64,000 nucleotides of DNA. It comes from Escherichia phage garuso. Position 1 is the stretch's first letter. Each line of letters begins with the position of its first letter. The notes under the pieces were generated by a model. It did not search any database, was not told the origin of the DNA, and was given only the letters and a program-made list of their open reading frames with translations. The stretch lies in sequence record MN850566.1. The stretch is one strand, 5' to 3'. Made by a program: the position numbers and the translations under genes. Shown here in pieces: positions 4,300 to 5,900 of the stretch.

Positions 4300-4543
4300 A
4301 ATGACCTCAAAGTTATATTAAATTTTGTATTACATTGAGTATAAAAATAAGCTATAACACCTGACTTGTCAACAGATTTTATAGCTTATTTGGCAGATTT
4401 TTTATAAGGCTACTGCCATCCTTCCATACCTTACCTTACCACACCTAACCATACCTAACCAAACTACACCATACAATACCTTGTTAAAAGACCCTCTTAA
4501 AGACCTTTTAAAAAGGAGCCTCCGAAGAGGCTACCTAGTCAAC
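4300..4543 (-). repeat. repeated intergenic module (terminator hairpin + pyrimidine-rich tract + promoter-like site), copy 1
   Basis: Shares GGCTACTGCCATCC...CCATACC and AAAGACCCTCTTAAAGACCTTTTAAAAAGG blocks with 5590-5900. Confidence 0.5.
4506..4532 (-). terminator. rho-independent terminator (minus strand)
   Basis: On minus strand AGCCTC-TTCG-GAGGCT followed by CCTTTTT; downstream of gene 4544-4984. Confidence 0.55.
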
Positions 4544-4984
4544 TTAGAAAGGTTTTCTACGTTGCTTATTAATGTTAGCTTTCATAGCAGCTAAATGGTT
4601 TTGCTGTTCAATCAGTCGTGAACGTTCTTGATGACTAAGTGCCATAGTATTCACATTCTCAATCGCTTGAGTAGCTTGCTTTAAAGCTCGACCAATCTTA
4701 CCAGACATTTTACGTTTTGCAATAGTTGCTTGATGCTTAGGCTCAACCACACGATAACCAACACCCATTGAAGCAACCAGATAAATCTTCTCTTCTTTAA
4801 GAAGCTTCTCAATAAACTTCTCAAGTCGGTTTAGACGTGTAAGCGCATAAGCCTTCATTTCATCTTCGTACTTAACAATGTCACCTTGATAAGTTGGCTT
4901 CACAATACCTAAGAAGGTATCCATCTCAGAGTGTGATACAGTGTCACCGTAACTAAACTTTGCTGCTAATGCTTTTGTATTCAT
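4544..4984 (-). CDS. hypothetical protein
   Basis: 146 aa ORF. Confidence 0.5.
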   Translation of the reverse strand: MNTKALAAKFSYGDTVSHSEMDTFLGIVKPTYQGDIVKYEDEMKAYALTRLNRLEKFIEKLLKEEKIYLVASMGVGYRVVEPKHQATIAKRKMSGKIGRALKQATQAIENVNTMALSHQERSRLIEQQNHLAAMKANINKQRRKPF

Positions 4985-4986
4985 AA

Positions 4987-5574
4987 TTAAACGTTACCTT
5001 CTGAAATAACTTCTACAGAAAAACGACCAAAGCGTGGACGCCAATCACCTACACCACAAAGGTTACCAGCATTTTCCAGAACCATCAAGAGTTCTTCTTT
5101 GGTGATTTGCTCTTCATCGAACATCAAACCGAACTCTACAGACCAGTCACGGAAGATTGGACGGTAGCTCATAACTCGTGCTGTACCAATCTTAACAGAC
5201 TTAGCATAGATAAAGTCTGGATTCTTAGCAAGTTCTTGTGGGTTTGCTGGGCAGTTCTTGATAGTCATTGGGAAGACTACATCTGTCAGCATAATGGCTC
5301 GGTCAATTACCTTACCAAGTTTATTGAGTTTTGCACCAGACTTGATACAAGCCTCAATCATCTCACCGTTCATAACAAAACCTAGTTGGTCATCGTAGTA
5401 GCAAGAAGTTACCAGTTGACTTTCTGCTAAGAGCGCATAGTCTTCGTCAGTCTTTTTACGTTTACTGGACAGAGACTTGTGATATTTTGTCAGAGGGTTT
5501 AATGGGTCTGACAGAGTATCTGCATGGCTCAGGAAAGGACGAGTACCAGTGATTTTGATATTTAACAGTTTCAT
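4987..5574 (-). CDS. hypothetical protein
   Basis: ORF track 4987-5589 begins at GTG; ATG at 5574 has GGAG upstream and is the more likely start. Confidence 0.5.
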
Positions 5575-5589
5575 AGCATTTAGCTCCAC

Positions 5590-5619
5590 ACTTTAGTTGA
5601 TTGTTAAGTTGTTTGTAAA
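5590..5619 (-). promoter_or_regulatory. sigma70-like promoter TTTACA-N18-TAAAGT
   Basis: Minus strand reads TTTACAAACAACTTAACAATCAACTAAAGT directly upstream of GGAG and start codon. Confidence 0.5.
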
Positions 5620-5900
5620 GAACCCTCAATAGAAGACTCTTTAGAAACTTGGTAGATTTTTAACGTGGCTACTACCATCCACCCATACCATACCAGACCG
5701 CGCCTTACCAAACCAGACCAAGCATTACTTTACCCTACCTCATTAAAAAACCCTCTTAAAGACCTTTTAAAAAGGTAAGTCTCATTTTAATGTAGATGAG
5801 ACTAACTACCCATACCAAACAGCACCGCACTATGCCTTACCCCACCTCACCGAGCCTCGCCCCACATCACTTAAAAAACCCTTTTCAAAGACTCTTAAGT
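5590..5900 (-). repeat. repeated intergenic module, copy 2
   Basis: Shares conserved blocks with 4300-4543; contains hairpin AGTCTCAT/ATGAGACT and 9 bp inverted repeat ATCACTTAA/TTAAGTGAT. Confidence 0.5.

Follow-up and report, generated by a model that had tools for sequence, protein, structure and literature searches.

The minus strand of Escherichia phage garuso (sequence record MN850566.1, analysed here as a window of 64,000 nucleotides) carries at positions 4391-5962 a type II VIPR locus of the SUSP1 clade, in which two guides, A and B2, are aimed at a satellite of E. coli; the probability of this reading is put at about 0.93. VIPR, or Viral Interference Programmable Repeat, is a phage-borne RNA-guided DNA silencing system described in two preprints (bioRxiv 10.64898/2026.04.26.720920 and 10.64898/2026.04.26.720927), hereafter the VIPR preprints. 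The system is built from Vipr, which is a minimal RAMP-like protein, the accessory gene vap, and vrRNAs of 9-16 YNNGG repeats with a conserved tail (10.64898/2026.04.26.720920), and its authors propose that it is older than CRISPR (VIPR preprints). It is a recently reported form of RNA recognition of DNA, in which two bases of every five-base repeat make up a gapped code. The garuso modules are an instance of this already described system and add no new principle to the VIPR preprints; what makes them of interest is annotation and the particular targets. Spotting vrRNA genes in raw sequence matters for annotation; public records of Felix O1-like phages leave both intergenic regions empty or mark them just 'repeat_region', and the modules are not mentioned in the Felix O1 (PMC3185647) and related genome papers or in the Bas63 essentiality screen. 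Knowing the targets of garuso guides A and B2, the main promoter and the integrase gene of the satellite, is useful when choosing Felix O1-like phages for therapy or biocontrol.

The protein encoded between the modules was matched to PDB entry 36pp, 'SUSP1 Vipr protein', with E = 2e-128 and 195/195 residues covered. It is identical to SUSP1 ALH47069 at 191 of 195 residues (98%), which exceeds the >90% Vipr identity at which the authors set the SUSP1 clade (bioRxiv 10.64898/2026.04.26.720920). The RNA and DNA contact residues named in the structure preprint are kept (H17, K33, R39, E71, M72, K82, G87, K88, R138, C173, D177, W178, and R179). Residue 175 is a valine both in the garuso protein and in the SUSP1 GenBank protein (C173 G174 V175 G176 D177); the 'T175' named as lining the pyrimidine pocket (bioRxiv 10.64898/2026.04.26.720927) therefore fits neither sequence and is probably a numbering or typing slip. 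The protein is assigned to phrog_4652 (function unknown) and has no Pfam match. The adjoining 146-residue gene, assigned to phrog_5926 and likewise without a Pfam match, is the putative vap1, given where it lies and how the preprint describes the locus. The vap of type II systems is a predicted DNA-binding protein (VIPR preprints, 10.64898/2026.04.26.720920 /.720927).

The intergenic regions on either side of this gene pair had drawn attention in a preliminary description of the DNA, which reported two copies of a composite module, at 4300-4543 and 5590-5900, with shared ordered blocks. The blocks are there, far beyond chance. Pairwise alignment of the two intervals gave 71% mean column identity, a repeat search of the window returned 4390-4516 and 5649-5775 as a 127-nt repeat pair with 78% identity, and the 25-nt box CCCTCTTAAAGACCTTTTAAAAAGG is present in exactly two places in the 64 kb, where 0.00 are expected. 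Both copies are real, but the modules number three, with an extra, diverged copy at about 5769-5905. On the minus strand, the 'pyrimidine-rich tract' of that description has as its complement a (GGYNN)x12 array with a strict 5-nt period, which reads GGTAT TGTAT GGTGT ..., and the pattern GGTNNGGTNNGGTNNGG has 15 overlapping matches in the window, found only at the three modules, where 0.23 were expected. The core of each module is such a guide array together with a pseudoknot tail, i.e. a vrRNA gene. The minus strand carries every gene in this part of the window; all three tracts (~12 units each) lie on the same strand as vipr, and the order along it is promoter, vrRNA B2, vrRNA B1, vipr, vap1, terminator, and vrRNA A. 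The ~12 YNNGG units of each garuso tract match the 12 protomers of SUSP1 vrRNA1, which forms a 12-protomer filament (10.64898/2026.04.26.720927).

To describe the arrays, 47 unique Felix-like tracts were collected with a detector that required only the GG and not position 3. In these tracts pentamer positions 1 and 2 are G, position 3 is T in 87% and C in 12% of units (a pyrimidine in 99%), and positions 4 and 5 are nearly free. Tract lengths follow 5k+2 and range from 47 to 82 nt (~9-16 units), 57 nt being the commonest. Furthermore, comparison with relatives (17 IMG/VR loci and two GenBank phages) revealed the same modules, one to three per intergenic region, with almost invariant flanks and completely different tracts, such that relatives with near-identical flanks carry unrelated NN strings. 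The flanks are >95% conserved while the tracts differ completely because the variable NN dinucleotides are the guide.

The ~33-nt element 3' of each tract is a predicted H-type pseudoknot, four sequence variants of which keep both stems complementary. Among 19 distinct tails both sides change in 9 of 12 pairs, and 86% of cells pair, compared with 26-47% when the partners are slid; the observed covariation was reached by none of 500 shuffles. A pseudoknot in the vrRNA tail is also reported for the SUSP1 clade (VIPR preprints, 10.64898/2026.04.26.720920 /.720927). Rfam covariance models returned nothing meaningful at E up to 10 in 3500-7000 and nothing at the gathering score in 16 other array-bearing loci, with no hammerhead in that sample.

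The likeness to the type II VIPR of SUSP1 extends over the whole locus. Vipr and the adjacent accessory gene are 98% and 99% identical, the shared neighbourhood lies between DNA ligase and a block with a helix-turn-helix (HTH) regulator and dihydrofolate reductase, and the two phages share the promoter and 5' elements before the upstream vrRNA, the YNNGG format, the types of tail pseudoknot, and the satellite target family. Specifically, the promoter sequence TTGACA-16-TATACT found upstream of vrRNA B2 also precedes vrRNA1 in SUSP1. The differences are that garuso is a Felixounavirus, closest to Alf5, whereas SUSP1 belongs to Suspvirus; that garuso has two vrRNA genes upstream of vipr-vap (B2 and B1) and one downstream (A), unlike the one upstream and three downstream in SUSP1; and that the guide sequences differ.

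When complete E. coli genomes were searched by BLAST with the locus, 152 chromosomes proved to contain vrRNA-like sequence. One match lies inside a ~12-kb island with genes for two serine recombinases (one small, one large), a methyltransferase, an HNH endonuclease, and tape measure and baseplate proteins, which is the phage satellite described in the VIPR preprint (10.64898/2026.04.26.720920). Of 5,426 complete E. coli genomes, 542 (~10%) have related satellites. The natural targets reported for the SUSP1 clade lie mostly on this E. coli phage satellite (10.64898/2026.04.26.720920).

The three guides were scanned at skip lengths of 0-3 nt against 17 satellite loci (319 kb), with at least 80% of the NN bases matched under the 1-nt skip rule as the criterion for a target. 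At a 1-nt skip the vrRNA A guide matches 22/24 bases (92%) in three satellites and 19-21/24 in five more, always in the same place. This place is the main promoter of the satellite, TTGACA-17-TAGTAT, AAAATGCTAGTATTGTATATATAAGTTAACAGAAT; the site starts in the promoter spacer and extends across the -10 box and the start region, with the first gene of the rightward block immediately downstream. The vrRNA B2 guide matches 21/24 (88%) in four satellites at the same skip, inside the large serine recombinase (integrase) gene, segment GATGGAGAATCAGAGAGGAAGATTGCAGCGTTACA. Here each paired NN occupies codon positions 1-2 and it is the wobble base that is skipped, a pattern also reported in the VIPR preprint (10.64898/2026.04.26.720920). 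Shuffling of the unit order reached neither 22/24 for vrRNA A nor 21/24 for vrRNA B2 in 1000 trials, the null maxima being 20 and 19. Skips of 0, 2, or 3 nt gave nothing comparable to the 1-nt skip in the 17 satellite loci, and no guide exceeded 17/24 in the phage's own 64 kb. Results suggest that the most likely role of the locus is the silencing of a phage parasite.

The satellites themselves carry vrRNA-like genes with Felix-type tails, and no Vipr homologue was found in them. Their guides match other satellites best (up to 22/24) and not the garuso phage, in agreement with the preprint. Satellites may therefore use the Vipr of the helper phage. The satellite loci examined (L139:13000-24600, L140-L147, and L149-L155) are integrated at four or more sites (ymdF-wrbA, yciI-tonB, within a DUF72 gene near yecN/yecD, and lafU-dinB) and are often disrupted by insertion sequence elements. 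Members of the family have an adenine methyltransferase or an AP2/ERF-like gene.

Several points weigh against this reading. The VIPR preprints (2026) are not yet peer reviewed, and the mechanism proposed for garuso is carried over by analogy from the SUSP1 results. The target scan covered satellites from 17 of the 542 satellite-bearing genomes, and the best matches, 22/24 and 21/24, are not perfect. The AT-rich vrRNA A guide gives chance matches of 19-20/24 in AT-rich DNA at a 3-nt skip; these sites are AT-rich intergenic DNA and were rejected both as targets and as vrRNA genes. Lastly, vrRNA B1 (query nGAnAGnAAnAAnTTnCTnTTnAAnGCnCTnATnAT) has no significant target in the 17 satellite loci, its best match of 18/24 being reached by 400 of 1000 shuffles, and the four 5' units of its tract are degenerate and depart from GG.

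This last guide raises the possibility that one or more of the vrRNA genes, vrRNA B1 in particular, is a decaying or currently untargeted guide without present function, an explanation that we regard as unlikely though still deserving consideration. Its degenerate first units and the lack of a significant satellite match are as expected under this explanation, as is the outcome of a search of one genome per bacterial species, in which the 12 matches were all in unrelated AT-rich taxa and were taken as chance. IMG/VR yielded one independent match of 21/24 (L168:3625-3659 / L169:3329-3363) in a portal-like gene, with the skipped base at the wobble position. Among the neighbours of this gene are terminase and Mu-F-like genes, its GC content is about 39%, and its contig has no relative in the phage collection; the match is therefore tentative and may be a real target or chance. 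Conversely, the tail and the 5' element of vrRNA B1 are intact and conserved across relatives, the satellites sampled are a small part of those available, and 21 of 41 SUSP1-clade guides are likewise without an identified target in the VIPR preprint (10.64898/2026.04.26.720920).

Under the VIPR reading, each module would be transcribed into a ~100-nt RNA of ~12 YNNGG repeats and a pseudoknot tail. Each repeat would be bound by one Vipr protomer, with the GGY bases buried and the two variable bases exposed, and the resulting filament would read double-stranded DNA, skipping one base after each NN. A gapped R-loop triplex would then form and transcription would be blocked. The steps from protomer binding to the gapped R-loop triplex have been shown for SUSP1 (bioRxiv 10.64898/2026.04.26.720920,.720927), whose vrRNAs are expressed, ~100 nt long, co-purify with Vipr, and silence transcription of their targets (VIPR preprints). 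The arrangement resembles Class 1 CRISPR-Cas systems, in which Cas7-type RAMP filaments form on the crRNA, in that a RAMP-fold protein polymerises on a guide RNA and a thumb periodically interrupts pairing. In CRISPR, however, 5 of 6 bases are paired, whereas the VIPR guide is non-contiguous with two paired bases per 5-nt repeat; the VIPR target is read with a 1-nt skip, no protospacer-adjacent motif is needed, and the outcome is silencing, according to the preprints. No CRISPR repeat-spacer array, cas-like genes, or adaptation module was found in the locus, and the neighbouring genes have no Pfam matches except for the HTH regulator.

The distribution of arrays and Vipr homologues was examined beyond garuso. 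With the 6-kb stretch around the locus as query, 259 phage records were matched, almost all of them from Felix O1-like myoviruses; the top match was Escherichia phage vB_EcoM_Alf5 (96% identity over 99% of the query), a Felixounavirus. Module-like sequence occurs in about 230 of the 259 matching records, with 1-5 matching places per record. VIPR thus appears near-universal in the genus Felixounavirus; the authors defined the SUSP1 clade from 13 loci (10.64898/2026.04.26.720920). IMG/VR was scanned for six GGTNN units, and all counts of array loci refer to the matches listed. Among these, dozens of unrelated viral contigs have arrays of GGYNN tracts with variable NN, simple microsatellites aside. 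The genes just upstream of these arrays have C-termini resembling that of the 195-residue protein, and a jackhmmer profile found a Vipr homologue in 49 of the 67 variable-tract loci among the matches listed, most of the remaining 18 loci being very short. A homologue was found in just 1 of about 70 simple-pentamer-repeat loci among the same matches. The variable-tract arrays are probably the other VIPR types of the preprint.

The array loci span L018-L137 (e.g. L044:2216-3403, L032:3330-5315, L033 on the minus strand, L051, L087:2250-3264, L041, and L091). The punctuation between array units varies, being a bare 'CA', 'CTAATG', 'TTTAATGAATTTAATTT', or a GTGCCAATGGCAC hairpin, and among the matches listed arrays have up to 13 units and single tracts up to 54-61 repeats. 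A perfect 15-nt repeat, (GGTTA GGTTA GGTAA)n, was seen in L019, L023, L031, L035, L053-L055, L089, L124-L127, L134, and L137; no Vipr homologue was found in the fetched stretches of these contigs, and the repeat may be a microsatellite of one common phage group.

The preliminary description viewed the modules as generic terminator and promoter cassettes, the minus-strand counterpart of cassettes on the plus strand, with the same modular intergenic architecture on both strand blocks. Families of repeated intergenic cassettes in 5-9 copies do occur on the plus strand at 42800-48710, in each of which a GGGGCTT...AAGCCCC hairpin overlaps TTTACA-N17-TARAGT and a conserved TCCTAAACTGGAGATTC-AAAATG ribosome-binding region comes next; they resemble the promoter/stem-loop cassettes of T4-type phages. 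They correspond to the 57-bp direct repeats reported for Felix O1 (PMC3185647). The vrRNA modules are like these repeats in being repeated, intergenic, and in the same genome, and in the TTTACA-N17/18-TARAGT pattern, which is common to the site at 5590-5619 and three plus-strand cassettes. The fit of that site to the cassette promoters holds on counting, as the window has four TTTACA-N16-19-TARAGT sites where 0.23 are expected, the remaining three lying in the plus-strand cassettes at 43.2-45.8 kb. The site at 5590-5619 is also invariant in relatives, so that vipr may be driven from it by a promoter of that class. Both intervals likewise have terminator-like and promoter-like sites. The hairpin at 4532-4517 is real, as are the second hairpin and its T-run, but the latter pair is the tail of vrRNA B2; with a T-run after its pseudoknot, this tail therefore doubles as an intrinsic terminator. 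Both promoter-like sites, 4372-4344 and 5619-5590, were recovered in the promoter scan, although such sites are not in excess over shuffles in the region (9 found against 9.1 expected); both are located 3' of vrRNA tails, where they would act for the protein genes that follow.

The claim of a shared architecture failed nonetheless. No repeat family joins the minus-strand and plus-strand regions, and the modules are therefore not a counterpart of the plus-strand cassettes, which at 42.8-48.7 kb are another sequence family in another strand block, without a GGYNN array, pseudoknot tail, or adjacent vipr. Generic cassettes would also leave unexplained the 60-nt GGY array with its strict 5-nt period, the covariation in the pseudoknot, NN strings that are hypervariable among near-identical phages, the linkage to Vipr in unrelated phages, and the satellite matches. 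Taken together, this explanation is very improbable.

Binding sites of the protein TRAP consist of ~11 conserved triplets with 2-3 unconstrained bases between them, each triplet being bound by one protein subunit. The garuso tracts, with ~11-12 triplets and 2-nt spacers, are alike in layout; they differ in that the triplet is GGY and not (G/U)AG, the spacers carry information, and the target is DNA, and Vipr forms an open helical filament of RAMP-like fold, unlike the closed ring of TRAP. That the tracts are TRAP-like ring-protein sites, G-quadruplex or R-loop elements (G2N3 repeats could form two-tetrad quadruplexes), or antisense Rho-loading sites (the complement is C-rich and G-poor) is hardly credible, as the adjoining protein is the solved Vipr, the structures described for it have one protomer per repeat with GGY buried, and neither quadruplexes nor Rho loading need a pyrimidine-restricted position 3. 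Phased RNA polymerase pause sites were rejected with N5 not being pyrimidine-biased, and primase-site arrays, R-loop origin elements, and adenine mutagenesis of (GGTAA)n of the diversity-generating retroelement type became unnecessary after the identification of Vipr. The same applies to BoxA-like antitermination, for which GGTCTTTAAGA / GGTCTTTTAACAA are only loosely like the rrn boxA.

Immediately 5' of every tract lies an inverted repeat, with the stem TTAAAAG/CTTTTAA or ATCACTTAA/TTAAGTGAT and the almost invariant loop GTCTTYTAAGAGGGT. The stem at vrRNA B2 is unlike that of the other two modules, yet it is still complementary, and one relative has a long insertion in the loop. The element falls outside the ~100-nt mature vrRNA, taking the size reported for SUSP1, and no description of it was found by term search of bioRxiv 10.64898/2026.04.26.720920 or in the sections consulted of that preprint and of.720927. 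Possible roles in vrRNA biogenesis are as a processing, promoter, or operator signal, to which Vap or the nearby HTH regulator, for instance, might bind. That the repeat is an undescribed signal, with VIPR also near-universal in Felixounavirus, is offered tentatively, being a possibility and not an expectation.

Table 1. Features of the VIPR locus and adjoining sites in the garuso window.
Feature	Position	Strand	Basis or description
Putative sigma-70-type promoter 5' of vrRNA B2	5935..5962	-	TTGACA-16-TATACT; 11/12, best in region
5' inverted repeat of vrRNA B2	5864..5905	-	ACATCACTTAA...TTAAGTGATGT around conserved loop GTCTTTGAAAAGGGT
vrRNA B2 guide	5810..5869	-	11-12 YNNGG repeats; NN = GA GG GA TC GA GG AA AT GC GC TT AT
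vrRNA B2 3' tail	5769..5809	-	H-type pseudoknot GTAG/CTAC; AGTCTCA/TGAGACT, then T-run
5' inverted repeat of vrRNA B1	5743..5770	-	TTAAAAG...(T)TTTTAA around loop GTCTTTAAGAGGGT; the conserved 'box' of the preliminary description
vrRNA B1 guide	5683..5742	-	12 YNNGG repeats; NN = GA AG AA AA TT CT TT AA GC CT AT AT
vrRNA B1 3' tail	5650..5682	-	Pseudoknot GTGG/CCAC; TGGTAG/CTACCA
Promoter-like site 5' of vipr (putative)	5590..5619	-	TTTACA-18-TAAAGT; 9/12
vipr, 195 aa, RAMP-like protein polymerising on vrRNA repeats	4987..5574	-	PDB 36pp match
Putative vap1 (vipr accessory protein), 146 aa	4544..4984	-	145/146 identical to gene at SUSP1 vap position
Intrinsic terminator after vap	4510..4532	-	Terminator scan; AGCCTC-TTCG-GAGGCT and T-run; hairpin 4532-4517
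5' inverted repeat of vrRNA A	4484..4511	-	TTAAAAG...CTTTTAA around loop GTCTTTAAGAGGGT
vrRNA A guide	4424..4483	-	12 YNNGG repeats; NN = AA AT AT GT TT TA AT TA GT AA AA AT
vrRNA A 3' tail	4391..4423	-	Pseudoknot AAGG/CCTT; TGGCAG/CTGCCA
Promoter-like site, downstream 127-aa gene, outside VIPR proper	4344..4372	-	TTGACA-17-TATTTT; 10/12

Two further features of the window were noted. A 48-residue, strongly hydrophobic open reading frame (phrog_22006; 5970-6116, minus strand) lies between the DNA ligase gene and the promoter of vrRNA B2; it is annotated in Alf5 and absent from the SUSP1 annotation. On the plus strand, a tRNA gene cluster at 59890-63400 is predicted from repeated GGTTCGAATCC T-arm motifs, such a cluster being expected in Felix O1-like phages. 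Next to the tRNA cluster in this genus there may be a Ro60-like protein, according to the Bas63 study.

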